From Candidatus Sumerlaeia bacterium (GTDB lineage Bacteria; Sumerlaeota; Sumerlaeia; SLMS01), in the NCBI GenBank assembly GCA_038208905.1, contig JBBQYG010000113.1, forward strand, positions 1 through 13,194: 13,194 nucleotides of DNA, given 5' to 3'. Position 1 is the first letter of the stretch. Every line of letters begins with the position of its first letter. Positions 1-12,571 of the stretch are shown here, piece after piece. The notes beneath the pieces were generated by a model, which was not told the DNA's origin, made no database searches, and was given only the letters and a program-made list of their open reading frames with translations. Position numbers and translations under genes: made by a program.

Positions 1-1
1 G

Positions 2-2206
2 ACCCCGGTGATCACGGCAACGGCCACGCCGACGGCAACCACCGTGCCCCCGACAGCGACAGCAACGGCGACCAGCACACCGATCGCCACGCTTACGCCG
101 ACGGCCACTCCGATCCCGCCGACGGCAACCGCGACGGCCACTACTGTGCCGCCGACGGCAACCGCGACGGCCACGCCGATCATCACGGCCACGCCGACGG
201 CAACGCCGGATAACCGCGCTGTCATTCGCGCGACGATCCTAAGCGGACCAACAGACGTCCCCGACACCGAATTCGTCGTGCGCGTCGCGGTCCCGTCGAA
301 CAACACCGGAATCAACGTCCGCAACTTCGGCGTCCGCGTGACCTACCCGATCGACGCAGTCAGCTATGTCTCCGTCGCTCCGGGCACGCTCAACTCCGTT
401 GGCGATGGCACTGGCGAAGGCAACGCAGGCGGCAACCTCCGCTTCCATGACTTCTCCACGTTCAACGTCACCGGCGAGCAGCAGCTCCCCGTGCTGATGG
501 ACATCACCTTCCGCACGGTCGATCCAGGCACCTTCACCGTTCCGTTCGACATCATCCTGTCGTGGGATTCGTCGATCTCCGACTTCCCGCTATTCCGCGA
601 CTCGGCGACGGAAGTTCCGTCACGTTTCGAGAGCTTGTTTGGCCTGGGCCTGGCGCCGACGCCGACTCCGTCTCCGACGGTGTCTGCAACGCCGACGATC
701 TCAGCCACTCCGACCATCTCCGCCACGCCGACAACGGTCACGGCGACACTCACCGCGACTCCGACGGCGACCGTCTCGCTCACGCAGACGCCTACCCCGA
801 CGATCTCCATCACGCCGTCCGCAACAGCGCCGCCGACGACAACCACGTTGACGGCCACGCCAACGGCGACGGTGTCGTCCACACCGACCATCTCGGCAAC
901 TCCGACGATCTCTGCGACGCCGACCATCTCGGCCACGCCGACCATATCGGCCACTCCGACGATATCGGCAACGCCGACAGTGTCAGCGACGGCAACGACA
1001 GCAGTCTCGCCGACCGCGACGACAGCAGTCTCGCCGACGGCAACGACAGCAGTCTCGCCGACGGCCTCCGTTTCCCCGACGCCGACGTTGGCGCCGAGCA
1101 CGGTGGAGTTCACATTCGATACGGCTCAGGAAGGCTGGGAGTACTTCAACTTCGCACCGTTCGCGGTTGTCGAAGGCGAGTACAACGGCACATCCCAGTC
1201 GCTCGATGTGACAACGACGGAGAACACCAACTCCTTCGGCTTCTGGGAGTCCCCGCAGTTTATCGTGGGCGACACCGCTGTTGCGCCGAAGGACCTGCCG
1301 AGCGGCGCGGTTTACATCCGCGGCACCACGGGACCGGGCTCGCTGTATCGCTCGACCTTCTCGGTGCGCTCGAGCATCGCCGACCGTGCGCTTCAGCCCA
1401 CGTTCCGCGTCCGCTCCAGCTCGTTCAACTTCCAGCAGTCCGACGTCCTGGTTTCCACCTCTACGGGCGCGGGCGGCTTCTCGCCCACGACGGTCACCAG
1501 CAACTACATCCAGTACTTCAGCCAGCCGGAAGGCCAGAACAGCTTCCGTCTCGACTATGACGTGCTGAACTTCGATCCCGCCGATGCGGCCTCTGCCACG
1601 CTGTCTCTGGACAACGTGATCGTGGAATTCATCGGAACGGCAAACCTGAGCTCTGGCACCGACGTCGCCTCATTCGACTTCGTCGCCAACGGCTCGTCTG
1701 GCTGGACGGCGCGTACCGCCGCCCCGGCGCTCACCGCACCCGACCTGTTCACGGCCACCAACGGCCTGTTCATCGCCGGTTCCGCGACTCCGCCCGCCAC
1801 CATCCCGGGTACCCAGTTCGGATTCTGGGGAACCGAGACGTCGGTCACCTTCGAGGCCAACGCACTCTACCGCGTGCGCTGGATCGTTGGCAGCAACGCC
1901 ACTGCGGGCAACCGCGCGGCCCTGCCCACGTTCCGCCTCCGTGTGAACGACAGCTCGTTCAACTACGCGGCGCTGACCAACATCGACTCCGTCAATGCGG
2001 CAGCACGCGTGCCGTTCGATGGATCCCTTGAAGTCTACGACCTGTGGGTGCAGTCGCCCACCGCGATCGTCGGCAACTCGTGGATATTCTCGTTCGACTA
2101 CCTGTTTGTCGACAAGACCGGCGGAGCCGACGTCGATGACTCGACGCTTGGCGCCATCCTCAACTCGGTGCAGGTCACGCGCTACGCGGTGCCTGGCTCG
2201 AACTAA
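2..2206 (+). CDS. Large Thr/Pro-rich surface (S-layer-like) protein, 5'-partial: Thr/Pro linker, cohesin-like beta-sandwich (~209-640), Thr/Pro/Ser linker (~650-1095), duplicated C-terminal module (~1100-2200)
   Basis: The frame is open from base 2 (ACC CCG GTG...), so the GTG at 8 is probably internal and the true start lies upstream of the window. Ends TAA at 2204-2206, followed by two strong hairpins. Strong C/G third-position bias. The segment FVVRVAVP...NFGVRVTYP...VSYVSVAPG...LMDITFRT follows the cohesin-type strand pattern. The C-terminal ~365 aa align by eye with the C-terminus of 2884..4650. Confidence 0.85.
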   Translation, partial: TPVITATATPTATTVPPTATATATSTPIATLTPTATPIPPTATATATTVPPTATATATPIITATPTATPDNRAVIRATILSGPTDVPDTEFVVRVAVPSNNTGINVRNFGVRVTYPIDAVSYVSVAPGTLNSVGDGTGEGNAGGNLRFHDFSTFNVTGEQQLPVLMDITFRTVDPGTFTVPFDIILSWDSSISDFPLFRDSATEVPSRFESLFGLGLAPTPTPSPTVSATPTISATPTISATPTTVTATLTATPTATVSLTQTPTPTISITPSATAPPTTTTLTATPTATVSSTPTISATPTISATPTISATPTISATPTISATPTVSATATTAVSPTATTAVSPTATTAVSPTASVSPTPTLAPSTVEFTFDTAQEGWEYFNFAPFAVVEGEYNGTSQSLDVTTTENTNSFGFWESPQFIVGDTAVAPKDLPSGAVYIRGTTGPGSLYRSTFSVRSSIADRALQPTFRVRSSSFNFQQSDVLVSTSTGAGGFSPTTVTSNYIQYFSQPEGQNSFRLDYDVLNFDPADAASATLSLDNVIVEFIGTANLSSGTDVASFDFVANGSSGWTARTAAPALTAPDLFTATNGLFIAGSATPPATIPGTQFGFWGTETSVTFEANALYRVRWIVGSNATAGNRAALPTFRLRVNDSSFNYAALTNIDSVNAAARVPFDGSLEVYDLWVQSPTAIVGNSWIFSFDYLFVDKTGGADVDDSTLGAILNSVQVTRYAVPGSN
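116..174 (+). repeat. Two identical 26-bp copies (CCGCCGACGGCAACCGCGACGGCCAC) encoding PPTATATAT in the N-terminal linker
   Basis: Copies at 116-141 and 149-174. Confidence 0.85.
881..988 (+). repeat. Six 18-bp coding tandem repeats (TPTISA x5, TPTVSA x1)
   Basis: Units start at 881, 899, 917, 935, 953 and 971; they differ mostly at synonymous third positions. Confidence 0.9.
989..1060 (+). repeat. Three 24-bp coding tandem repeats (TATTAVSP)
   Basis: ACGGCAACGACAGCAGTCTCGCCG at 989 and 1037 (identical); the copy at 1013 differs at two synonymous positions. Confidence 0.92.
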
Positions 2207-2214
2207 TCACCAAA

Positions 2215-2239
2215 GCGGGGGCCCCACCGGGGCCCCCGC
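2215..2239. terminator. GC-rich hairpin just after the surface-protein stop (terminator or 3' stabilising stem)
   Basis: GCGGGGGCCCC (2215-2225) / ACC loop / GGGGCCCCCGC (2229-2239), a perfect 11-bp stem. AAA upstream gives a short U tail on the minus strand. Confidence 0.65.
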
Positions 2240-2257
2240 CAAAGTAACCCCATACTG

Positions 2258-2301
2258 CGATCCCCCCGGCACTCATCATGCCGGGGGGATCGTTTGCTTT
2301 C
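2258..2301 (+). terminator. Rho-independent terminator of the surface-protein gene
   Basis: CGATCCCCCCGGCA (2258-2271) / 7-nt loop / TGCCGGGGGGATCG (2279-2292), a 14-bp stem followed by TTTGCTTTC. Confidence 0.85.
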
Positions 2302-2329
2302 TGCAAGCTGCTACCCTGCTGATTGAGGC

Positions 2330-2689
2330 CTATTGGCCAAGAACGCTCTTAACCTTGAGGTCGGCCAACTGGCGCTCGGTGTCCTGCTGTCGTGTTTCAA
2401 TGTCCGCCATTTGTCGCTGGAGTTCGTCGCGCTGCCTTTCCGCATTCTCGGCACGTGTCGTCGCTGCCTTGGCGAGGTTCTTCAGACTGTCGGACGAGAG
2501 GTCTTGGGAAGACCTGTCCGCGACCAGCTTGCTCTCGAAGGGAAGCGGGAGCGGGAAGTAGGATCGGCATAGGTATCCACCCGCGAGGCCGAGCGAAATG
2601 AGACCACCCACGCCTGCGGCCTTCTTGAGTCCGCCCACGAAGCCACCACCGGCGGTGCCCTTCCTTCTTGCTGGTGCGCGACCTGCCAA
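2330..2689 (-). CDS. Small hypothetical membrane-anchored coiled-coil protein (~119 aa)
   Basis: 3' part of ORF 2330..2848. Proposed TTG start at 2689 preceded by AGGAAG at ~8 nt. Basic/Gly-rich N-terminus (MAGRAPARRKG...), a hydrophobic segment (AAGVGGLISLGLAGGYLC), then heptad-like LKNLAKAATTRAENAERQRDELQRQMADIETRQQDTERQLADLKVK. It fills the gap between two genes without overlap. Confidence 0.7.
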   Translation of the reverse strand: MAGRAPARRKGTAGGGFVGGLKKAAGVGGLISLGLAGGYLCRSYFPLPLPFESKLVADRSSQDLSSDSLKNLAKAATTRAENAERQRDELQRQMADIETRQQDTERQLADLKVKSVLGQ

Positions 2690-2883
2690 GGGATTCACTT
2701 CCTGCCGAGAGATATCACAGCTTGCTTCCCCCCAAGCGGCACTCTGTTGCCCCGACACTGTCAATTTCAACCTGTTGCCACGCGGGGACGCTCGTTTGCG
2801 GCAATGGCATTGCCTACTGGCGCGCAGTTGCGGCGATACTCCCCGCATAGCGCGCCGGAACCCCCACTCAGGAGCATCAGGCT

Positions 2884-4650
2884 ATGAACAGATCGTCGAT
2901 CAATTCGCGGGCCCTTGGGATTCTCTCATTGTTCCTCGGCGCCACTGCGGGCATCGCTCCGGCCGCCGACCGCGCCGTGGCCAATGTGCGCGTGTTGCAC
3001 CTGTGCCCTGATTCGGGGCGCGTGGACGTCTTCGTGAATGGCTCCGCGACGCCATTCGTCTCCAGCTTGGCCTTTCCACACGGAACGACTTTCGTGGAGG
3101 GACCGACGGGATCCTACAGCTTCGACATCGCCCGCGCGGGGGCGGGGATAGAAAACTCCGAACTTTCGGTTCCACCGACTCCGCTCGAGGGCGACGGCTT
3201 TTACACCGGAGTTGCGTTTGATCGCTTCGCTTCGATCAAGGGGATGATCTTGCAGGAGGACTTCACCGCGCCGCCCACCGGCGACTTTCGCACGCGGGTC
3301 TTCCACGCGGCCTCGGGCGTTGGTCCCGTTGATCTTCTCGCGCTCGATTCGGCGGGGAACACCATTCTGCTGAACGACGTATCGTTCGGCGCCCAGGGCA
3401 CGTTGACCCTCGTCGGCGGCAGCTATCGCGTGGGCCTCGACCTGAACAACAACCTGGAGCCAGAGTTGACGTTCGTGCTGCCCGTCATCGCTCCGGGTAC
3501 CGTGCTGAACCTTTTCGCCGTGGCCGATTCATTCGGGGCATTCCTACTGGCCCAGTTCCAGGATGGCACCACGCTGCGAATCAATCCCGAGGAGGCGGAT
3601 GTGCGATTCGCCTTCGACTTTGGCCTTGGTGTCGGCCAAGAGGGCTGGTCCTTCCTGACACCGCCACCCTTCGCCGGGAGCGCTGCGGTCGCGACCGCCG
3701 GAGGGATCACCATCCAGACGTCCAACAACACGAACTCCTTCGGCTTCTTCGACTCGCCGCTCCTGGAGTTGGAGAGCGGCGACTTTGGCACCTTCGAGGC
3801 TGAGGTCGTCGTGAGCACCGATATCGCAAATGCCGGCCTCGTACCCCAGATTCGCATTCGCGCCAGCGATGTGGACTACGCGCGGAGCACTGTGTTCGTG
3901 GTCTCGTCACAAGGGAATGCAAACCTCGCCCCGACCCCGGCCGGTCGGGCCTATCGCATTCCGTTCTCGCTATTGGCCGGTCGGGAGAGCGCTCGTCTCA
4001 GCTTTGACGTCCTCAACTTCGATGGTGATGCCGCGAATGCGAGGCTGACGCTCGAGCAGATCACGATTCGTAAGCTCTTTGGCGGGCTTGGCGTCGTTTC
4101 GCCGTCGGGCTTCGAGGTTGCTAATCTGGACTTCAGCGGTGGAGAGGCGAACGGTTTCACCGCGAGGACGGCGGCTCCGCTTCGCGCTCCCACGTTTCAG
4201 GCGACCGACGCCGGCCTGTGGATCGTGGGCGAGGCACCGGGGCAGTTCCGCTCTGGTGGGAGTGGCAACGACATCTTCGGCTTCTGGGGTCTCGAGACAA
4301 ACATCCCGTTGGCCGCCGGTCGCCTCTATCGAATCGCGGCCACCTTTGCCAGCGACTCGACGACCGACCAATCCAACCTGACCATCCCCGCCTACCGTTT
4401 CCGCGTGAACGATAGCTCGCTTCAGTCCTCCGTTTATCTAAACGCGGAATCCACGACCGATGCCCTGCCGTCCCCGACGACTACCGCAACCGTCACCCAG
4501 GCGCTCTGGTACCGCACGCCGCCGGGAATCGAGGGGAACACGTGGACGTTCAGCTTCGATTATCTCTATGCCCCCTCAACCGACAACGATGCTTCGATCG
4601 GCGTCTATCTTCAGGGGTTCACGGTTACGGAGTTCCCCGAGTTCGACTAG
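2884..4650 (+). CDS. Exported protein with two DUF4397-like repeats (~2980-3590) and the duplicated C-terminal module (~3600-4647)
   Basis: AGGAG upstream of the ATG; signal-peptide-like MNRSSINSRALGILSLFLGATAGIAPA. VRVLHLCPDSGRVDVFVNG and RTRVFHAASGVGPVDL resemble the DUF4397 'VRVxHxxPdapaVDvyvng' pattern. The C-terminus is homologous to that of the first CDS. Confidence 0.85.
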   Translation: MNRSSINSRALGILSLFLGATAGIAPAADRAVANVRVLHLCPDSGRVDVFVNGSATPFVSSLAFPHGTTFVEGPTGSYSFDIARAGAGIENSELSVPPTPLEGDGFYTGVAFDRFASIKGMILQEDFTAPPTGDFRTRVFHAASGVGPVDLLALDSAGNTILLNDVSFGAQGTLTLVGGSYRVGLDLNNNLEPELTFVLPVIAPGTVLNLFAVADSFGAFLLAQFQDGTTLRINPEEADVRFAFDFGLGVGQEGWSFLTPPPFAGSAAVATAGGITIQTSNNTNSFGFFDSPLLELESGDFGTFEAEVVVSTDIANAGLVPQIRIRASDVDYARSTVFVVSSQGNANLAPTPAGRAYRIPFSLLAGRESARLSFDVLNFDGDAANARLTLEQITIRKLFGGLGVVSPSGFEVANLDFSGGEANGFTARTAAPLRAPTFQATDAGLWIVGEAPGQFRSGGSGNDIFGFWGLETNIPLAAGRLYRIAATFASDSTTDQSNLTIPAYRFRVNDSSLQSSVYLNAESTTDALPSPTTTATVTQALWYRTPPGIEGNTWTFSFDYLYAPSTDNDASIGVYLQGFTVTEFPEFD

Positions 4651-4812
4651 GCTGTGTTTGATAAATGGCTTCGAGCTGGTCCGTTGAGCGAGAACGAGTC
4701 ATGACGATGGCGCCGATGACGAGGCGATGTAGTTCATCGTTGAGGATTCGCGACGCGTCAGCACGAAGGTTCGCAGCCATCGGAGAGCCGAATGCAATTG
4801 TCAAACTCAGCC
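4650..4812. mobile_element. 163-bp MITE-like non-autonomous element with ~17-bp terminal inverted repeats and TA target duplication
   Basis: Left end GGCTGTGTTTGATAAAT (4650-4666). Right end AATTGTCAAACTCAGCC (4796-4812), reverse complement GGCTGAGTTTGACAATT, 14/17 identical to the left end. TA at 4648-4649 and at 4813-4814. No transposase inside. Confidence 0.75.
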
Positions 4813-4827
4813 TAACTCCCTGCCGAC

Positions 4828-4867
4828 AAAAGGGACGCCCCATCGGATAGCTTGCCGATGGGGCGTC
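4828..4867 (-). terminator. Rho-independent (probably bidirectional) terminator between the convergent DUF4397-like gene and the PII gene
   Basis: GACGCCCCATCGG (4834-4846) / 8-nt loop / CCGATGGGGCGTC (4855-4867), a 13-bp stem. On the minus strand it is followed by CCTTTTG. Confidence 0.8.
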
Positions 4868-4941
4868 GTTACATAACGGGGTTCGCCCGATTCTAGGCAT
4901 TCTCAACGGTGGGGAACGCCCGGAATGAGTCCGGCCGCGAC

Positions 4942-5280
4942 TCAGAGCGCCTCTTCGTCGCGCTCGCCCGTGCGAATGCGGACGGCGCTGCCCACGTCGA
5001 GGACGAAGACCTTGCCGTCGCCGATGGTGCCGGTCTGGGCGCTCTCGACGATGGCCTTCACCACGTCGGCGACCTGCTCGTCGGGGACGACGATCTCCAG
5101 GCGGACCTTGGGCATAAAGTTCACCTGATACTCGCTGCCGCGATAGAGTTCCTGGTGCCCCTTCTGGCGTCCGAACCCGCGGACTTCCCAGGCGGTGAGG
5201 CCCATGATGCCGAGCGCGGCGAGCGCGGCGCGGACGTCTTCGATCTTGTGTGGCTTGATGACGGCTTCGATTTTCTTCAT
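4942..5280 (-). CDS. glnB: Nitrogen regulatory protein P-II (GlnB/GlnK family), 112 aa
   Basis: 3' part of ORF 4942..6210: MKKIEAVIKPHKIEDV...GFGRQKG...YRGSEY...PKV...TGTIGDGKVFV...VRIRTGE. Canonical 112-aa length, T-loop Tyr51 retained, AGGGAG upstream of the ATG at 5280. glnB and glnK cannot be told apart from sequence alone. Confidence 0.96.
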   Translation of the reverse strand: MKKIEAVIKPHKIEDVRAALAALGIMGLTAWEVRGFGRQKGHQELYRGSEYQVNFMPKVRLEIVVPDEQVADVVKAIVESAQTGTIGDGKVFVLDVGSAVRIRTGERDEEAL

Positions 5281-5547
5281 GGGCCTGACAGGCTCCCTTC
5301 GGGGGATGTCTTCCAGATGGCGCGATTGAGGAGAAATCGTCGGAGTGGCTGGCGCAACGCAAGCTTGAATTGCCCGACGGATTCTTCGGCGGAGCATTCC
5401 GACGCTCCAAAAATTCAACTGCTTTATACAGACAGGCGGCGGACCTCGCCAGCGAGTGGTCGGCATCGGTGATTGACGACTCCCCGGCGTCGCCCGTTGG
5501 CTTAAGCCGTCAGCCCATTGCCCAGACCTCCAAGGTTCCACCCACGC

Positions 5548-6360
5548 ATGTACGTGCGCCAGCGCATCCCCGTCCGCCCGTCGATTCGCGTGGATCGCGA
5601 ATTCGGGCTCCAGTGCGGAGGGGTTGTGGTGGCGGGTGTGGACGAGGCGGGGCGCGGCCCCCTTGCGGGACCGGTTGTCGCGGCGGCGGTGGTACTTTCG
5701 CTGGATGGGCGCCGCCCCCTGGGGCTTCGCGATTCCAAGCAGCTCAACGCCAAGGAGCGCGAACGCGCCTTCAGGCAGATCGTCCGCTTGGCCGTCGGCT
5801 ACGGAATCGGAGTATCGACGGCGCAGGAGATCGACCTGGTGAACATTCTGGAGGCGACACGACTGGCGGCCTCCCGGGCCCTTGCCCAGATCAGTCCGCC
5901 GCCGGGGGCGCTGGTGACGGACGCGCTGGATCTTCCCCGCGAGGCGGTGCCCCAGCTCCCTCTTGTGAAGGGCGATCAGATTTCCGCGAGCATCGCAGCC
6001 GCATCGATCCTCGCCAAGGTCACGCGCGACCGCATGATGCAGGCCTATGCGGAGGAGTTCCCGGAATACAACTGGGCCTCCAACAAGGGCTATCCCACGG
6101 AAGACCACTACGCGGCCATCGGCGAGCACGGGCCGTGTACGCTGCACCGGCTCTCGTTTCGCGGAGTTGACTTCTTCCACGCGGAGCCGCGTCGTTCGCC
6201 CTCCTTCCACCGGCTTTGCGCACGCATCGAATCGGGTTGTCCCCGGGAGGAGGCGCGGCTTGAAGTCGAGCCCTTCGCGGCCCGGTTGCCGCCGCCAGAC
6301 TACCAGGAGCTGATGCGCCTCCTCTCACTATCCCAACCCCGAGGTCAGGACACCCCATGA
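5548..6360 (+). CDS. rnhB: Ribonuclease HII with a C-terminal extension
   Basis: Motifs AGVDEAGRGPLAGPVVAAAV, LRDSKQL, EIDLVNILEAT, VKGD..SASIAAASILAKVTRDRMM, NKGYPT..H and HRLSF. The ATG at 5548 is preferred over the TTG at 5518, but the start is uncertain. Confidence 0.95.
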   Translation: MYVRQRIPVRPSIRVDREFGLQCGGVVVAGVDEAGRGPLAGPVVAAAVVLSLDGRRPLGLRDSKQLNAKERERAFRQIVRLAVGYGIGVSTAQEIDLVNILEATRLAASRALAQISPPPGALVTDALDLPREAVPQLPLVKGDQISASIAAASILAKVTRDRMMQAYAEEFPEYNWASNKGYPTEDHYAAIGEHGPCTLHRLSFRGVDFFHAEPRRSPSFHRLCARIESGCPREEARLEVEPFAARLPPPDYQELMRLLSLSQPRGQDTP

Positions 6361-6602
6361 CGTTCCGCGCCACGATTCACGTGATGTTGAAGCCCGATGT
6401 CGCCGACGTTCAGGGGATGGCGATCCAGCAGGCCCTCGCCAACCACAACTACGCGGTGTCGGGCGTTAAGGCCGGGAAGTTCTTCGAGCTGGAAGTCCGC
6501 GCGGAGAGCGAGTCGGAGGCGCGCGCCATGCTCGATGAACTGGCCAACGGCACCTTCAGCAATCCCACGATCGAGAGCTATCGGGTGGAACTGGCGCGCT
6601 AG
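6357..6602 (+). CDS. purS: Phosphoribosylformylglycinamidine synthase subunit PurS
   Basis: 81 aa; VMLKPDVADVQG.AI..AL, V..GKFFEL and NPTIESY match the PurS pattern. ATGA overlap with the rnhB stop; AGGA upstream. Confidence 0.9.
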   Translation: MTFRATIHVMLKPDVADVQGMAIQQALANHNYAVSGVKAGKFFELEVRAESESEARAMLDELANGTFSNPTIESYRVELAR

Positions 6603-8569
6603 CGCGCGATCCATCCCGTGACGGCGAATTCCGCGCGCGCCACGATCGCGAAGCCCTGGGGCCCATTGACGGGATCGACCTGGCGCGCCGCGACGCGGAG
6701 CGTATAGACACCGGGACCGAGGTCGCGCAGGAGCACCTGCTCCACGTTGTTCAGCGCGTCGGGAAAGCCACCCTCCACAGAGATACCGTCCGCGAATGCG
6801 TTGCCGGGGAAGATGACCTCGCTCGGAGTTTGCACTTCCAGATTGAGGTCATTGACGGCGACCACCGACGCGAGATGCGCGGCGGGCGGGTCCATCCAGG
6901 AGAGCGTCACGCGCAGCTCGCGGATAGGTGCCGTGACTGTGAACGCGTGCTCGAAAACGCCACCGCTGATGAGCGCGCCGCCTCCACTTCGCCGCGCATC
7001 GAGCAACCAGAGGCTGTGTGTGTCGCCGGCGAAAAACAGCGAGTCGTGGAGCACCAGCCGACCCCATCCTTCGCGGTCGCCGGGAAATCCGTCCAGCCCG
7101 GGCATATCGACGGTCGCGTTGAGCAAAAGCGCCTTGAGCAGCGCGCCCGACGGCGTGAATCCATTGGGTGCAACGCGGGATCCCGTGGGATACCAACCCT
7201 CCATGAAATATTGGCGCGCCAGCAGGCCGGCGCCCGCGACGGCGGGGCAGGCCATGCTGGTTCCGCTAAGCGCGCCGACGTTGCAACTGCCGCTGATTGC
7301 GCTGACGGTGCCTTGGCCGGGGGCGTAAATCTCCGGCTTGCGGCGTCCGTCCAGCGTGGGGCCCGTGCCGCCGCTGAAGAAGGATCCAATGTCGTCCCAT
7401 CGCCGAGTCGCCCCCACGGCGAGGACGTTCTTGGCGTTCTCCGGCGCGGCCAGCGTGGGGCCGTTGGTCGCGGCCACAACGACGAGGGCGTTCTCGTTCT
7501 CCCACGAGAATGTGTCGGCGGCGGTTGCCAGCCAGATATAGTCCGAGCGTGCATCGTCTCCCCACGAATTCGAGTGGATCGCTGCGCCGTCGTCCCGCGC
7601 CGCCTCAAGCATTGCCGAGAAGTCGACGAAGTTCCGCGCAACGTCGTCCATGTAATGGGGGATGAGGCTTGTATATACGCCGTGCGTCAGCCGGGCATCG
7701 GGCGCGACGCCCGCATTCGAATCCGATCCCGATACGTTGCGACCCACCGCCGTGGCGGCGGTGTGCGTTCCGTGATTGCTGACCGCCCCGATGCCGCGGA
7801 ATCCCTGAATCTTCCGATGCGCGGGACCGAAGGCATCGGATTCCGGATCGCTCAGATAGCACGTGGAGAAGTCCAGCGGCCCATCGATGTGGCCGAGCAT
7901 CTGGCCCTGCCCGCGCAGCCCGCGATCCCAGAGCGGACGACTCGTCGCCTGGCCCGACTGCACAACACCGGTTACGGTGTTGTTGCGAAGCGAGAGCATC
8001 GGCGCTCGTTCGATCCATTGGACGGATTCGATAGCGGCGACATCCTGTAGCCGCGCCACCGGAACGCGGGCGCCCATGATCGTGCATGCAGCGTTGGTGC
8101 TGCGTTTCGCCGCAATGGCGCCGCGGGCGAGGAGCTCGGCCTCAGCGGCGATGGAGTCCTCGCCCGGCCAAAGGATTACGATTGTGTCGACGAACTCCTC
8201 CAGTCCCTTGGGGGATTGCGTCAGCAGGGGGTCCAGCTTCCACTCCGGCGCGATGGCTCCCGCCCAGCGAACACCCTTGGGCGCGGGCCCGGCCGGCGAC
8301 CGCACGATGTAGCTTGTGGGCGGGATTGGCGCGACGAAATCCCAACCCTTGGCCGTCAACTCGCGATGTAGCTGATCCGACAACGGCCCCTCGAACTGGA
8401 CGATTCGATATCGGGAAGCTGATTGTTTCGGCGCGGCGGAAAAGGGGCTGGCCATGTCCAACGGATCCCCATGCACAGAACGGAGCGAAATGCCGCAATC
8501 GCCCCCATAGGCGACCGACGCCACGAGGACAATCCCGATCCAGACCAGTTGTCTCCGAGTCTCCCGCAA
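6599..8569 (-). CDS. Secreted subtilisin-like serine protease (S8) with propeptide and C-terminal beta-domain
   Basis: Catalytic triad motifs GHIDG (Asp), NHGTHTAATA (His) and SGTSMACPAVAG (Ser); also HSNSWG, PENAKNVLAVGA, DGRRKPEIYAPG, PSGALLKALLLN, EGWGR, LRVTLSWMDPP, VNDLNL and NNVEQV, typical of KP-43-like subtilases. Start re-assigned to the TTG at 8569 (GGAGG 5 nt upstream, followed by signal-like RETRRQLVWIGIVLVASVAYG). The longer start at 9007 would overlap the opposite-strand gene. Confidence 0.92.
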   Translation of the reverse strand: MRETRRQLVWIGIVLVASVAYGGDCGISLRSVHGDPLDMASPFSAAPKQSASRYRIVQFEGPLSDQLHRELTAKGWDFVAPIPPTSYIVRSPAGPAPKGVRWAGAIAPEWKLDPLLTQSPKGLEEFVDTIVILWPGEDSIAAEAELLARGAIAAKRSTNAACTIMGARVPVARLQDVAAIESVQWIERAPMLSLRNNTVTGVVQSGQATSRPLWDRGLRGQGQMLGHIDGPLDFSTCYLSDPESDAFGPAHRKIQGFRGIGAVSNHGTHTAATAVGRNVSGSDSNAGVAPDARLTHGVYTSLIPHYMDDVARNFVDFSAMLEAARDDGAAIHSNSWGDDARSDYIWLATAADTFSWENENALVVVAATNGPTLAAPENAKNVLAVGATRRWDDIGSFFSGGTGPTLDGRRKPEIYAPGQGTVSAISGSCNVGALSGTSMACPAVAGAGLLARQYFMEGWYPTGSRVAPNGFTPSGALLKALLLNATVDMPGLDGFPGDREGWGRLVLHDSLFFAGDTHSLWLLDARRSGGGALISGGVFEHAFTVTAPIRELRVTLSWMDPPAAHLASVVAVNDLNLEVQTPSEVIFPGNAFADGISVEGGFPDALNNVEQVLLRDLGPGVYTLRVAARQVDPVNGPQGFAIVARAEFAVTGWIAR

Positions 8570-8669
8570 GCGCTCCTCCGGCGTTATGGGCAATTCGCCG
8601 ACCCACGCGAGCACAATACCGGCGGGCCATCCCAAGGCAAACGGGAAGCGATCCCGCCCGACAATTCGC

Positions 8670-8697
8670 GTGACGCCCAATGGGGGCGCGATACGGT
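8670..8697 (+). promoter_or_regulatory. Candidate sigma70-type promoter for a leaderless glycosyltransferase transcript
   Basis: GTGACG (8670-8675), 16-nt spacer, TACGGT (8692-8697), then 7 nt to the ATG at 8705; no Shine-Dalgarno. Confidence 0.35.
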
Positions 8698-8704
8698 GCT
8701 CTTC

Positions 8705-10327
8705 ATGAGTAGGGACTCTGAAACTCCGTCGCCCGCGACTCCCTTCCAGCAGTGGGAGGTGGGGTTCCTCGCGGCCTGCATGACGTTTTTTGTGGCGCTG
8801 GCAGTCATCACGTCCTGGTGGAAATCGCCCGCCGCCGACTCGATGCTGCACTATCGCTTTGGCGAGTGGATCCTCGGCGCGCCGCTGGCCCTCGGCGACG
8901 CGCTTGCCTGGGACGGCACCATGCCAGTGTCGGCGATCTATGTGATGGCGGGACGGCTGCGCGAGGGACTTGCGCCGCTGATGGGCGAGCCGTCGGACCC
9001 GTGGCAATTTCCCATCTGCCGCATTCCCAGCCGGTCATGGGCCCAGTTTCCCGCGATCCTCATGGGGGCGGGGATCCTGTTGATCGTGTGGTGGCTGGCG
9101 CGGCGCATCGTCGGGCCCTCTGCGGCGGCGGGGGCGATGCTGGTGGGTCTCTTTGAGCCCAACCTGACGGGGCTCACGCGATTTGCGGGAACCGATGTTC
9201 CCAGCACTCTGGGATTCGTTGGCGGTATCGCGGCAATCACCTACTATATCGAGAGGCCGACCCGCAGGCGCGCCGCGCTGCTGGCGGCGGTTCTCGCGGT
9301 GGCTCAGATCACCAAGATCACCAATCTCCTCCTCTATCCCATCGCCGCGGTCTCGGTGCTCGCGGTGGAGTGGAGTGCCCTTCGGGACACCCTGCGACGC
9401 GGCGATGCGATCCGGCGGATCGGACTGATGGCGTTGCTGGTTCCCCTTCTCTTCATCGCAACACTGCATGTCGCCTACTCGGGATTGGACCCCGCAAGAA
9501 AGGCGCGCCTCGCGGGCGAGCGGGAGGTCGATACCGTCATTGCGAGCAAGCTCGCGGCGCCAATGTGGGCGCTCCGTCCGGTTATTCCGCCCGCGTATAT
9601 ACAGGCATACGCCCAGGCAAAGCTTCACAACCACCGCGGGCACGATGCCTACCTTCTGGGCGAATACCGAACGAAGGGGTGGTGGTACTACTTTCCGCTG
9701 GCGATTCTGTTTAAGTCCTCCACCTGGATGCTGATTTTGGCGGCCTGGGGCACGTGGATCGTTTTCCATGAGCGCCGGTGGCTGGCAGCGCCCCTCCTTC
9801 TCGGCTCACTGGCCTATCTGCTCTATTTCTGCTTCCTCGTTAGAGTGAACATCGGAGTGCGCCATGTGCTGCCGGTCTTTCCCATGCTCATCCTCCTCGC
9901 GGGTGTTTCCCTTGGGGCGATCGACTGGCGTGGGGTATTGCGTGGGCCGATTTCAGGCCGCGCGGTGACTGTGCTGGGGGCTCTGCTATTCCTCTGTCAC
10001 GCGATCGGGACGGTGTCGCTCTATCCCCATCACGAGCAGTACTTCTCGTCCATCCTGGCCAGAGGCCCGAATCTTGGATGGAAGTATCTCGGCGATTCCA
10101 ATCTTGATTTCGGCCAGGAAATCCTGACGGTCGAGCGATGGAAGGCGCGGCAAACCGTCCCCGTCCATATCGATCCCGCGGAGCCCGTGAAGGGGCTGAT
10201 CGCCATTCGAGCCGTGCTGCTCATCGGACTCGATCAGGAGATGGCCGACCGGATGGCGTGGCTGCGCGAAAACTATCAGCCCATTGACCAGCCGTCGCCC
10301 GCGATACTGATCTATCAGGTGGATTGA
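8705..10327 (+). CDS. Multi-pass membrane glycosyltransferase, ArnT/PMT-like (GT-C fold)
   Basis: Many hydrophobic segments; motifs FEPNLTG, GTD, AQITKIT, GHDAYLLGEY..KGWWYYFPLAILFKS, NIGVRHVLPVFP and LGDSNLDFGQ, as in bacterial GT39/GT83-like proteins. ATG 8705 chosen because the upstream in-frame extension overlaps the divergent protease gene. Confidence 0.85.
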   Translation: MSRDSETPSPATPFQQWEVGFLAACMTFFVALAVITSWWKSPAADSMLHYRFGEWILGAPLALGDALAWDGTMPVSAIYVMAGRLREGLAPLMGEPSDPWQFPICRIPSRSWAQFPAILMGAGILLIVWWLARRIVGPSAAAGAMLVGLFEPNLTGLTRFAGTDVPSTLGFVGGIAAITYYIERPTRRRAALLAAVLAVAQITKITNLLLYPIAAVSVLAVEWSALRDTLRRGDAIRRIGLMALLVPLLFIATLHVAYSGLDPARKARLAGEREVDTVIASKLAAPMWALRPVIPPAYIQAYAQAKLHNHRGHDAYLLGEYRTKGWWYYFPLAILFKSSTWMLILAAWGTWIVFHERRWLAAPLLLGSLAYLLYFCFLVRVNIGVRHVLPVFPMLILLAGVSLGAIDWRGVLRGPISGRAVTVLGALLFLCHAIGTVSLYPHHEQYFSSILARGPNLGWKYLGDSNLDFGQEILTVERWKARQTVPVHIDPAEPVKGLIAIRAVLLIGLDQEMADRMAWLRENYQPIDQPSPAILIYQVD

Positions 10328-11385
10328 ACGCGCAGCCGCCGGGACGCCAGCAACTCCTCCGCCGCGCGCGTCGCCATGTCGGATGTCACGCCCGTCATGC
10401 AGCGATGGTCGATGGGGCAATGGCGAAGGAGGCACGGTGCGCACGGCGTCTCCGCGCGCACGATGCGGCAGTGGTCGCCCAGCGGCGCTGTCGTAACCCA
10501 ATCGGTGCTGCCAAAGACCGCCAAAAGCGGAGTCCCCAGCGCCGCCGCGATGTGCATGGCGCCGCTGTCGTTGGTCAGGAACACATCCGCGCGGGCCAGG
10601 AACGCCATCAACTCGCGAAGCTTCATACGCCCCGCCGCGTTCACGAATCCCCCGCCGCCCGCGTCGCACACGGCCTGCGCAACGTCGCGTTCCTGGGGGA
10701 GCCCCGTAACCACCACGCGGCCACCGTGGGCGCTGGCGATGCGGCGGGCGGATTCGGCGAAGCGCTCCGGCAGCCAGCGCTTGGCGGTCCCAAAGAACGC
10801 CGCGGGGTTCACGCCGACGATCGGGGTGGTTGAAGTGATGCCCTCTGCGGCAAGCCATGCCGCCATCGCGTCGCGCTCGGCTTGGGTGATCGTCAGCTTC
10901 AGCGGGGGAGGCGGCCGCGATTCTTTCTCCCAGAAATGCAGCAGGCGCAGGTAGTACTTCACCTCATGCACGGCCAGATCCTCGGGCCGCAACTCCACGG
11001 GCATCGTCAGCAGCAATCGCCGCGCGTCGCGATTGTACCCGACGCGGTGCGGCACGCGCGCAGCAGCAAGGAGCGCCGCCGACTTGAGCGAGTTCGGAAG
11101 CAGGAACCCCAGATCGGCGCGCCACTCGCGCAGGCGGGCAGCGGTTTCGCGGAAGCTTCGCATCGACTTGTCATCGATGGGCCACACCTCGTCCACATCG
11201 GGGTGCGGCTGAAGCAAGCTCGCCACGTTGGACCGCCCGAGGCACAGGATCCGCGCATTTGGAAACATCTCCCGCACCCGGCCCAGAAACGGCGTATTCA
11301 TCACGCAATCGCCAACCCAATTCGTCAGGCGAATGGCGATGCGTTCGATGTTTCGCGGATCGGGGGCGGTTTTTGGCGTTGCCAT
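10315..11385 (-). CDS. waaF: ADP-heptose:LPS heptosyltransferase II (GT9)
   Basis: IRLTNWVGDCVM..P, LPNSLKSA, RVGY..DAR..LLT, HEV.YY, NPAAFFGTAKRW..ERF, TNDSGAMHIAAALGTP..AVFGST, and PCAPCLLRHCPIDHRCM. Start ATG 11385 (alternative 11400). The 3' end overlaps the convergent glycosyltransferase by 13 nt. Confidence 0.9.
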   Translation of the reverse strand: MATPKTAPDPRNIERIAIRLTNWVGDCVMNTPFLGRVREMFPNARILCLGRSNVASLLQPHPDVDEVWPIDDKSMRSFRETAARLREWRADLGFLLPNSLKSAALLAAARVPHRVGYNRDARRLLLTMPVELRPEDLAVHEVKYYLRLLHFWEKESRPPPPLKLTITQAERDAMAAWLAAEGITSTTPIVGVNPAAFFGTAKRWLPERFAESARRIASAHGGRVVVTGLPQERDVAQAVCDAGGGGFVNAAGRMKLRELMAFLARADVFLTNDSGAMHIAAALGTPLLAVFGSTDWVTTAPLGDHCRIVRAETPCAPCLLRHCPIDHRCMTGVTSDMATRAAEELLASRRLRVQST

Positions 11386-11464
11386 TGCTCTCTGTGGCAT
11401 CGGGTGCAAACATTCACCCGCTGGTCGAGACAATTCGACCCTATCCCCGGCGAAGGGCAAGGCG

Positions 11465-12571
11465 ATGACGAGCAGAACTGGCGAGATTCTAGACAAGGCG
11501 GCGCGCGGCGGGCGACTCTCCGACGAGGAGACGCTTGAACTTTTCGAGCACGCGGAACTCCCGGAGCTATCCGCCGCGGCCCATGCCGCGCGAAAGCGCC
11601 TGAACCCCGGCAATGTCGTCAGCTATATTATCGACCGGAACGTCAACTACACCAACATCTGCCTCGCGTCGTGCGACTTCTGCGCCTTCTACCGCAAGAT
11701 CGACGACCCTGAATCGTATGTCCTCACGCGCGACGAACTACGCCAGAAGATCGAGGAGACCCAGCAACTCGGCGGCAACCAACTCCTGCTGCAGGGCGGC
11801 ATGCACCCGCGCCTCAAGCTGGAGTGGTACGAGGACATGCTGCGCTGGATGAAGTCGGAATTCGGCATTCACCTCCACGCTTTCAGCGCGCCGGAGATTC
11901 ACGCGTTCTCCAAGATCAACAAGCTGAGCTATGAGGAAGTCCTCGGTCGCCTTAGCGCTGCGGGACTGGATTCGCTCCCCGGCGGGGGAGGGGAGATCCT
12001 TGTCGATCGCGTGCGCAAGGAGCTGACGCGCGGCAAGTGCCTGACGGAGGAATGGCTGGAGGTCCACCGCGTGTGGCACCGCCTTGGCGGGCGCTCCACG
12101 GCCACGATGATGTTTGGCCATGTGGAGACGCTGGCGGAACGCGTGGAAACCTTTCGCCGTTTCCGCGACCTGCAGGACGAGATGGGCGGCTTCACCGCGT
12201 TCATCGACTGGACGTTCCAGCCCGAACACACGGCCCTCGCCGCGCGCACCGACCTGCGCGAGGTGGGCTCGTGGGACTACCTGCGCACCACCGCCATCGC
12301 GCGTCTATACATCGACAACATCCAGCACATCCAATCGTCATGGGTCACCCAGGGCGGCCGCATCGGCCAGGTGTCGCTCTTCTACGGCTGCGACGACATG
12401 GGCTCGATCATGATCGAGGAGAACGTCGTTAAGGCCGCCGGCGCCAGCTTTCACATGAGCGAAATGGTCCTCCGCCGCCTGGTCTCCGAGGCGGGCTTTG
12501 TGCCGAGGCGGCGGAATTTCTTCTACGAATTGCTGCCCGAGCCTGAAATCGAAAGGATGGTGGAGGTGTAG
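11465..12571 (+). CDS. mqnC: Cyclic dehypoxanthinyl futalosine synthase (radical SAM, futalosine menaquinone pathway)
   Basis: VSYIIDRNVNYTNICLASCDFCAFYR (CX3CX2C), LLQGGMHP, SLPGGGGEILVDRVR, STATMMFGHVET, GGFTAFIDWTFQ, HIQSSWVTQG and DDMGSIMIEENVV..AGA, the MqnC-type variants within the CofH/MqnC/MqnE family. Start set at ATG 11465 to avoid overlap with waaF. Confidence 0.9.
   Translation: MTSRTGEILDKAARGGRLSDEETLELFEHAELPELSAAAHAARKRLNPGNVVSYIIDRNVNYTNICLASCDFCAFYRKIDDPESYVLTRDELRQKIEETQQLGGNQLLLQGGMHPRLKLEWYEDMLRWMKSEFGIHLHAFSAPEIHAFSKINKLSYEEVLGRLSAAGLDSLPGGGGEILVDRVRKELTRGKCLTEEWLEVHRVWHRLGGRSTATMMFGHVETLAERVETFRRFRDLQDEMGGFTAFIDWTFQPEHTALAARTDLREVGSWDYLRTTAIARLYIDNIQHIQSSWVTQGGRIGQVSLFYGCDDMGSIMIEENVVKAAGASFHMSEMVLRRLVSEAGFVPRRRNFFYELLPEPEIERMVEV

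Follow-up and report, generated by a model that had tools for sequence, protein, structure and literature searches.

A C-terminal tandem jelly-roll module on exported proteins of Candidatus Sumerlaeota and its possible role in retention on surface glycan

What is the C-terminal module that ends two neighbouring genes of a Candidatus Sumerlaeia bacterium, and what might it do for the proteins that carry it? The genes, termed here open reading frames (ORFs) A and B, lie in the window, which is the whole 13,194-nt stretch of contig JBBQYG010000113.1 (assembly GCA_038208905.1) that was analyzed. An initial annotation made from the letters of the window had proposed that both exported proteins carry a common C-terminal module behind unrelated N-termini. 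We recovered every motif block quoted for this module, and BLASTP gave one significant alignment, between residues 368-728 of ORF A and residues 240-584 of ORF B, with 131 of 372 positions identical (35%, E 2e-47). Only this C-terminal segment aligned, no second significant similarity being found between the two proteins (E > 4 for every other BLASTP segment), and the N-termini are indeed unrelated. The first placement of the two modules, at 1100-2203 and about 3600-4647, was correct, and module B was now set at 3595-4647 (Table 1). The N-terminal layouts held as well, with a signal-peptide-like start (by our own crude heuristic) and DUF4397 in ORF B, and Thr/Pro stretches and a cohesin-like fold in ORF A. 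As had also been noted, a hydrophobic C-terminal helix is absent from both proteins. Our analysis resolved the module into a pair of lectin-like domains, which may hold exoproteins on the glycan of their own producer.

At the level of sequence, the module remained as unrecognized as the initial annotation had found it. At E <= 1, Pfam recognized nothing in ORF A and DUF4397 alone in ORF B, NCBIfam returned no family for either protein, and a profile search of PDB sequences with the module gave nothing at E <= 10. When the profile of the first half of the module was compared with that of the second half, hhalign reported a match with a probability of 99.75% (E 2.2e-27, 156 columns). Therefore, the module is a tandem duplication of one domain of about 180 residues. 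The AlphaFold2 model, built from a 38-sequence alignment, was all-beta and consisted of two domains (mean pLDDT 96.2, pTM 0.93), which points to a fixed inter-domain arrangement in the predicted structure.

Structure searches assigned this model to the beta-jelly-roll fold of the CBM4/22 type of carbohydrate-binding modules (CBMs). In a structural search other than Foldseek, the nearest solved fold of domain 1 was CBM4-2 (4bj0; Z 15.0, root-mean-square deviation 2.4 over 143 residues), followed by a long series of CBM4, 16, 22 and 61 modules. Domain 2 was nearest to the CBM-fold cyclase 6a8x (Z 14.9), followed by the hyaluronan-related CBM70 (4d0q, Z 12.8) and CBM15 (1gny, Z 12.6), and it also matched porphyran- and alginate-binding CBMs (Z 12.4 and 12.3); hyaluronan, porphyran and alginate are all anionic glycans. 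Other CBM-fold matches of the module included 1gui (Z 12.7) and 4xuo and 4xun (Z 12.1-12.2), and MAM domains were also among its fold neighbours (Z 12.4-12.6). The top ranks in Foldseek were a tandem CBM22 (4xup, E 1.4e-9), GH101 C-terminal domains, SGBP-B and a tandem CBM51; the TM-score over the whole module was low (about 0.3) because the domain packing differs. A feature search of the ESM Atlas led to GalBD-like and CBM_4_9 clusters (0.90-0.92). The fold is thus not new, the model and the fold searches agreeing on a tandem pair of CBM4/9/22-type jelly-rolls. The initial annotation had held that a confident match to a standard CBM would speak against its proposal; such a match was found at the level of the fold but not at that of the sequence family. 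The CBM_4_9 sequence model (PF02018) touched only 1 of 38 module sequences, with an E value of 0.041, and at sequence level the module falls outside CBM_4_9 and the CAZy families CBM4, 9 and 22.

The best-conserved residues form an equivalent set in the two domains, namely the P-x-x-R-x-R strand followed by S, P, Y and D (88-99% over 176 modules). Beyond the strands listed in Table 1, these residues are S121, P129, Y136 and D154 in domain 1 and S297, P305, Y313 and D333 in domain 2. Since the two arginines of each pair are spaced two residues apart on a beta-strand, both should face the same side of the sheet.

We searched the genome of the window, a 4.24-Mb assembly of 301 contigs that is 93.9% complete, with a hidden Markov model (HMM) built from both modules. 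Thirteen ORFs contained a full module, and three more had a single domain or halves that are rearranged. The match ended no more than 15 residues from the stop codon in 15 of these 16 carriers; the exception was a 2037-aa ORF on contig C14, where the last module match lay 28 residues before the stop. This ORF (28268-34378, plus strand) encodes a subtilase with rearranged half-modules in its C-terminal part. All ten carriers with a complete 5′ end had a signal-peptide-like N-terminus after the ATG, as judged by the same heuristic. The modules of this genome were mutually 30-50% identical. Six of the 13 full carriers were broken at contig ends, for which their repetitive Thr/Pro linkers are the probable cause. 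The Thr/Pro-rich stretches of ORF A are tandem DNA repeats of 18-54 bp within the linkers, and breaks inside Thr/Pro-rich repeats with periods of 18-54 bp were observed at the start of the window (1-1100) and of contigs C43, C261, C155, C140 and C41. The assembly therefore underestimates the true number and length of these genes. The predicted multiplicity of paralogs on exported proteins was thus observed, and their passengers proved to be very varied.

A full HMMER scan of 1.84 billion representatives yielded 566 clusters (50% identity) at E <= 1e-3 and 432 clusters at E <= 1e-10. The search of genome and databases with an HMM, as the initial annotation had advised, confirmed the terminal position of the module, which ended no more than 15 residues from the C-terminus in 158 of 161 retrieved database proteins. 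Within Sumerlaeota, the module was found in 39 of 75 genomes and in 21 of the 43 high-quality ones. All ten other genomes of the window's family carry it, and three further families contain 33-43 module matches per genome. In three other families, no module was found (0 of 13, 0 of 7 and 0 of 4 genomes). Every source name attached to a module match was Sumerlaeota or Sumerlaeia, and 10 distant database matches had cluster labels reading only "hypothetical protein" or no label. A pattern derived from a 12-sequence module alignment, scanned against one genome per GTDB species, identified 13 loci, 11 of them titled Candidatus Sumerlaeota and 2 titled "bacterium", in a scan that reaches close relatives only. 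A pattern taken from a single protein gave 40 matches and no relatives in a reference-genome scan. As far as seen, the module is therefore confined to Candidatus Sumerlaeota, in agreement with the suspected lineage specificity. DNA matching the window was reported in 21 metagenome runs from microbial mats, freshwater and sediments, and no RNA dataset was among these runs.

Table 1. Features of the two module genes and their positions in the window
Feature	Position	Strand	Description
ORF A	2-2206	+	734 aa; 5′ end lost at contig end; Thr/Pro linker, cohesin-like domain, long Thr/Pro linker, C-terminal module
Cohesin-like domain of ORF A	200-655	+	residues 67-218; AlphaFold pLDDT 85.2; Foldseek top matches nearly all cohesins
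Module A, domain 1	1100-1642	+	jelly-roll, module residues 1-181; model pLDDT 96.2; best fold match CBM4-2 (4bj0)
P-x-x-R-x-R strand, domain 1	1397-1414	+	P100, R103, R105; 98-99% identical over 176 modules
Module A, domain 2	1643-2203	+	jelly-roll, module residues 182-368; homologous to domain 1
P-x-x-R-x-R-x-N strand, domain 2	1925-1948	+	P276, R279, R281, N283; 93-99% identical over 176 modules
Terminator-like hairpin 3′ of ORF A	2257-2293	+	15-bp stem, 11 G-C pairs; consensus match only, shuffled control with equally many matches
ORF B	2884-4650	+	588 aa, complete; signal peptide, DUF4397, C-terminal module
DUF4397 domain of ORF B	2980-3336	+	residues 33-151; Pfam PF14344, E 1.1e-19
Module B, domain 1	3595-4092	+	alignment to module A; HMM
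Module B, domain 2	4093-4647	+	alignment to module A; HMM covering ORF B to its last residue

The passengers were surveyed by Pfam scans of 88 of the 124 retrieved proteins of at least 450 aa. The commonest families were Peptidase_S8 (24 carriers), FG-GAP (13), BACON (9) and cohesin (7), followed by VWA, DUF4397 and HYR (4 each) and by trypsin, ice-binding-like and beta-helix domains (2 each). Kelch, LVIVD, M8 peptidase, Laminin_G_3, BNR_2, Exo_endo_phos and a GH115_C-like sandwich occurred once each, and 11 carriers matched no Pfam family at all. The carriers in the window's genome had the same passenger spectrum. No catalytic glycoside hydrolase (GH) family was matched by any of the 88 scanned carriers or by the 14 other carriers of that genome. 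CAZy defines a CBM as part of a carbohydrate-active enzyme, and with no GH catalytic Pfam family on its scanned carriers, the module does not fit this definition. The NCBIfam "choice-of-anchor" domains D, Q or X scored above cut-off in 5 of 45 passengers; these families are defined by their interchangeable C-terminal anchors. A tree of 62 modules grouped them by passenger type, with 15 label changes compared to 33.8 in shuffles (none of 200 was as low), which indicates that module and passenger mostly diverged together, with some swaps.

We hypothesize that the module is a non-covalent, lectin-like retention domain, which would anchor exoproteins to a glycan of the envelope or coat of the producing cell; we give this reading a probability of roughly 45%, and it agrees with the anchoring or display role put forward in the initial annotation. 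The module's strictly C-terminal position, its expansion within one lineage, the signal peptides and the passenger types together characterize a domain for surface retention or sorting. Compared with a signal that is merely recognized and cleaved, non-covalent binding of a ligand is favoured by the lectin-like CBM fold, by the equivalent polar residues conserved in both domains and by the passenger-less copies. The absence of glycoside hydrolases among the carriers argues against classical substrate targeting. In the proposed mechanism, the carriers would be exported by the Sec pathway and would then presumably cross the outer membrane. The twin domains would take as their ligand a glycan from the envelope or coat of the producer itself, such as the O-chain or core of lipopolysaccharide (LPS), a capsule or an extracellular polysaccharide (EPS). 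Each domain would have one equivalent putative site around its P-x-x-R-x-R strand, so that binding would be bivalent. Diverse passengers would thereby be kept at the cell surface, including subtilases, FG-GAP, VWA, HYR and BACON repeats, ice-binding-like domains and cohesin-like scaffolds. The product of ORF A would provide a cohesin scaffold fixed to the cell, at which the dockerin-bearing proteins of the genome could dock, and that of ORF B would be a DUF4397 protein anchored likewise.

Several features of the genome and of the carriers support the proposed anchor. The passengers are of surface type rather than CAZyme type, and the choice-of-anchor domains found in 5 of 45 of them would fit such a role. 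Genes for LPS and the outer membrane are present: the window itself encodes a GT9 heptosyltransferase (10315-11613), and LpxC, Omp85 and four secretins are encoded elsewhere in the genome, which agrees with the initial description of the organism as an LPS-making diderm. Cohesin-like scaffolds end in the module, and the genome contains three dockerin ORFs. Moreover, the 94%-complete genome yielded no other common anchor system apart from one weak match to the C-terminal domain of the type IX secretion system (T9SS), and this predicted lack of alternatives would suit a module that serves as the anchor.

The candidates for such another system were each searched. The SLH anchor was rejected, as PF00395 matched nothing in the window's genome and matched four control genomes. 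LPXTG and PEP-CTERM signals were also rejected, given that the two proteins have no hydrophobic C-terminal tail and that no sortase and no exosortase were found in the genome. An autotransporter beta-barrel was likewise rejected, for the confident model shows two soluble sandwiches and neither ORF A nor ORF B matched an autotransporter family in Pfam. The single T9SS-type match (TIGR04183, 26 bits) lies inside the C14 ORF, between the half-modules, and TIGR04183 did not match the C-terminus of ORF A or ORF B. SprA_N (PF14349) had no match in the window's genome, and none of 14 control genomes matched it either. The absence of HMM matches, the missing tail and the soluble-sandwich model agree with the initial annotation, which had not recognized the module as SLH, a T9SS C-terminal domain, PEP-CTERM, LPXTG or an autotransporter barrel.

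However, a number of observations weigh against retention on the producer's glycan. The CBM fold would be just as consistent with the binding of an external substrate, the carriers may be periplasmic, and the conserved Arg pairs may have a structural role. Passenger-less proteins, in which the signal peptide is followed by the module, in some cases after a short Thr/Pro linker, make up at least 15 representative clusters; they had not been foreseen in the initial annotation and would be unexpected if the module were purely an anchor. Only 28 of 124 proteins have a Thr/Pro/Ser-rich linker immediately before the module, as do 6 of the 13 full carriers in the window's genome. Of the 75 Sumerlaeota genomes, 71 encode LpxC and 39 the module, and the presence of the module therefore does not track lipid A. 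No neighbour family recurs beside the 16 carrier genes of the window's genome, and thus no dedicated partner gene was found there. Additionally, homologues of the subtilase core of one carrier in families without the module end in CARDB plus PPC domains, in FG-GAP repeats or in no tail, which suggests an accessory-domain slot and not necessarily an anchor slot. Homologous subtilases with CARDB were observed in five genomes of module-less Sumerlaeota families, most of them with Pfam PPC matches or PPC-like C-terminal tails.

The strongest competitor, which we nevertheless consider unlikely, is that the module targets a glycan outside the producer, such as the EPS of mats or biofilms, the cell walls of prey or neighbours, or detrital glycans, and concentrates proteases and adhesins there. 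The fold matches are to true CBMs (CBM4-2 with Z 15.0, tandem CBM22, CBM15, CBM70 and CBM61), the Atlas clusters are CBM_4_9 and galactose-binding-like (0.90-0.92), stand-alone secreted modules exist, and the reported metagenome runs with matching DNA come from mats, freshwater and sediments. Thr/Pro linkers, too, are typical of CBM-enzyme junctions. This explanation is countered by the 0 of 88 carriers with a GH catalytic family, the nearest being one BNR_2 propeller and one GH115_C-like sandwich, and by the lack of membership in a CBM sequence family of Pfam, given the lone CBM_4_9 match. Moreover, the terminal position in 158 of 161 proteins and the adhesin, scaffold and choice-of-anchor passengers resemble an anchor slot.

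The same strict terminal position and the dozens of cargo-like paralogs per genome could instead mark an export or sorting domain for an outer-membrane machine, analogous to the T9SS C-terminal domain, or a PPC-like aid to secretion or folding that is later removed. The passenger types are typical of T9SS or PEP-CTERM cargo, PPC domains occupy the equivalent place on related subtilases of module-less families, and four secretins are encoded. We regard this possibility as improbable, as about 350 residues in two jelly-rolls far exceed the size of known sorting signals, the module gives no match to TIGR04183 (whose sole weak match in the genome, within the C14 ORF, lies elsewhere), and no partner gene recurs beside the carriers. 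In addition, passenger-less modules would be tags without cargo, and modules and passengers have diverged in parallel, the modules to 30-50% identity. The initial annotation had also offered a self-assembling, S-layer-like lattice that displays the passengers. A module common to many surface-type proteins would suit a lattice former, the passenger-less copies could be lattice fillers, and MAM domains, which mediate homophilic adhesion in animals, are among the fold neighbours (Z 12.4-12.6). However, no dominant single paralog is evident, modules that are 30-50% identical within a genome would be hard to co-assemble in one lattice, and the module shares its fold with lectin modules that are monomeric. 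Nothing has so far spoken for an S-layer, and we consider this reading very improbable.

Several known systems can be compared with the putative glycan-binding anchor. Like CBM4-2 (4bj0) and the tandem CBM22-1/CBM22-2 of Paenibacillus barcinonensis Xyn10C (4xup), the module has a beta-jelly-roll (Z 15.0 and 11.9-12.2, respectively), and 4xup also shares its tandem arrangement (Foldseek E 1.4e-9). The N-terminal "F-x-F...EGW" strand and the closing strand are similar to the CBM_4_9 pattern. However, the module has no sequence-family match to CBM4/9/22, its inter-domain geometry differs (whole-module TM 0.27-0.32), and it is strictly C-terminal, restricted to one phylum and without attached glycoside hydrolases (0 of 88). 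SLH triplets of surface proteins in Gram-positive bacteria and deep-branching diderms, including those of clostridial anchoring scaffoldins, are multi-repeat, non-covalent, glycan-binding anchors found on many surface proteins, a function that the module may share. In clostridial anchoring scaffoldins, the SLH anchor stands at the C-terminal end, after the cohesins, and the module likewise ends ORF A and its relatives. SLH domains also have conserved Arg residues in their binding motif. Unlike the module, they have a helical fold, and they show no homology to it and are absent from the window's genome. The CWB2 triple motif in cell-wall proteins of Clostridioides difficile resembles the module in being a conserved repeat unit of about 300 residues on about 30 paralogs with differing functional domains, but it has another fold, binds a Gram-positive wall polymer and occurs at either end of the protein.

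Two further systems concern secreted proteases. The T9SS C-terminal domain of Bacteroidota (TIGR04183 / PF18962) is, like the module, a strictly C-terminal beta-sandwich on dozens of secreted proteases, adhesins, BACON proteins and ice-binding-like proteins in each genome. It differs in being an Ig-like domain of 70-100 residues that is cleaved and replaced by A-LPS, whereas the module has about 350 residues and two jelly-rolls and shows no HMM match. The cleaved-adhesin domains K1-K3 of Porphyromonas gingipains (4itc) are tandem jelly-rolls in the C-terminal part of surface proteases (Z 12.7 to the module). However, this match is no closer than those of generic CBMs, sequence similarity is lacking, and K1-K3 are neither terminal nor universal across cargo.

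The cohesin-like domain of ORF A deserves separate consideration. Pfam matched no family in this domain at E <= 0.1, and a genome-wide search with PF00963 missed it as well. Nevertheless, the Foldseek top matches of its model were almost all cohesins (best E 1.7e-4, TMq up to 0.65), and in BLAST it aligned with the repeats of the protein P0157, with a best E of 2.6e-8. Pfam places a Cohesin match at 634-733 of P0157, within the repeat at 616-755, and the domain of ORF A thus combines a cohesin fold with homology to Pfam-positive cohesins. Related repeats were found in long ORFs of five other genomes, with the module at the 3′ end in four of these ORFs, and cohesin-like scaffolds ending in the module occur in at least five genera. 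The three dockerin ORFs of the window's genome lie on contigs C135, C16 and C43. On C135, a 939-aa protein (2207-5026, minus strand) with bacterial TSP3 repeats and a C-terminal type I dockerin is encoded two genes upstream of a cohesin-like scaffold ORF. The latter (1-1323, minus strand) combines a signal peptide with three cohesin-like repeats that share 53-58% identity with the domain in ORF A, and it runs off the contig. This truncated frame may correspond to the 5′ part that is lost from ORF A or from a close paralog. Together, these sequences provide hints of a cohesin-dockerin system in Sumerlaeota.

To our knowledge, nothing is known of the cell surface of Sumerlaeota (formerly BRC1), which are uncultured. 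No published description of the module was found in the literature on Sumerlaeota, Sumerlaea, BRC1 or Sumerlaeota with dockerin. Keyword look-ups in PMC8092238 and PMC10866078 under S-layer, outer membrane, secretion, cohesin and adhesin yielded no such description either. The fold is known, but three points appear undescribed: the sequence family itself, its restriction to the C-terminus of exoproteins that are not CAZymes in an LPS-bearing phylum, and its occurrence on cohesin scaffolds. The module marks a large, coherent set of exported Sumerlaeota proteins, comprising proteases, adhesin-like repeats, ice-binding-like proteins and cohesin scaffolds, and it provides a single handle for locating the surface proteome of the phylum in metagenomes. 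As a compact and confidently modelled domain, it is suited to binding studies and is a candidate affinity probe for labelling or enriching Sumerlaeota cells. Somewhat more tentatively than retention as such, we speculate that Sumerlaeota possess a surface-display system of their own, in which the twin-lectin anchor would sit on a conserved envelope glycan and tether dozens of exoproteins, including cohesin scaffolds that recruit dockerin proteins. If the module is an envelope-glycan anchor, it would offer bacteria with LPS a new way to display proteins non-covalently on their surface, and it would be the first hint of an anchored cohesin-dockerin system in Sumerlaeota. The proposed system would represent, in a diderm and with another fold, a counterpart of SLH or CWB2 anchoring and of cellulosome-like complexes that are anchored.

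The remaining observations concern the surroundings of the two genes. The terminator-like hairpin after ORF A, which is a consensus match with no excess over the shuffled control, suggests that ORF A and ORF B are probably separate transcription units. Downstream, at 4942-6210 on the minus strand, a P-II (GlnB) domain occupies the last 105 or so residues of a 422-aa open frame, and the long N-terminal extension is therefore probably not real. The minus strand also encodes an 802-aa subtilase without the module (6599-9007; Peptidase_S8, E 1.7e-30), a few kilobases from both module genes. Finally, an ORF on the plus strand (8423-10327) has a weak match to PMT_2 (ArnT / protein-mannosyltransferase-like) and lies near the genes with long Thr/Pro linkers; its product could glycosylate lipid A or these linkers.

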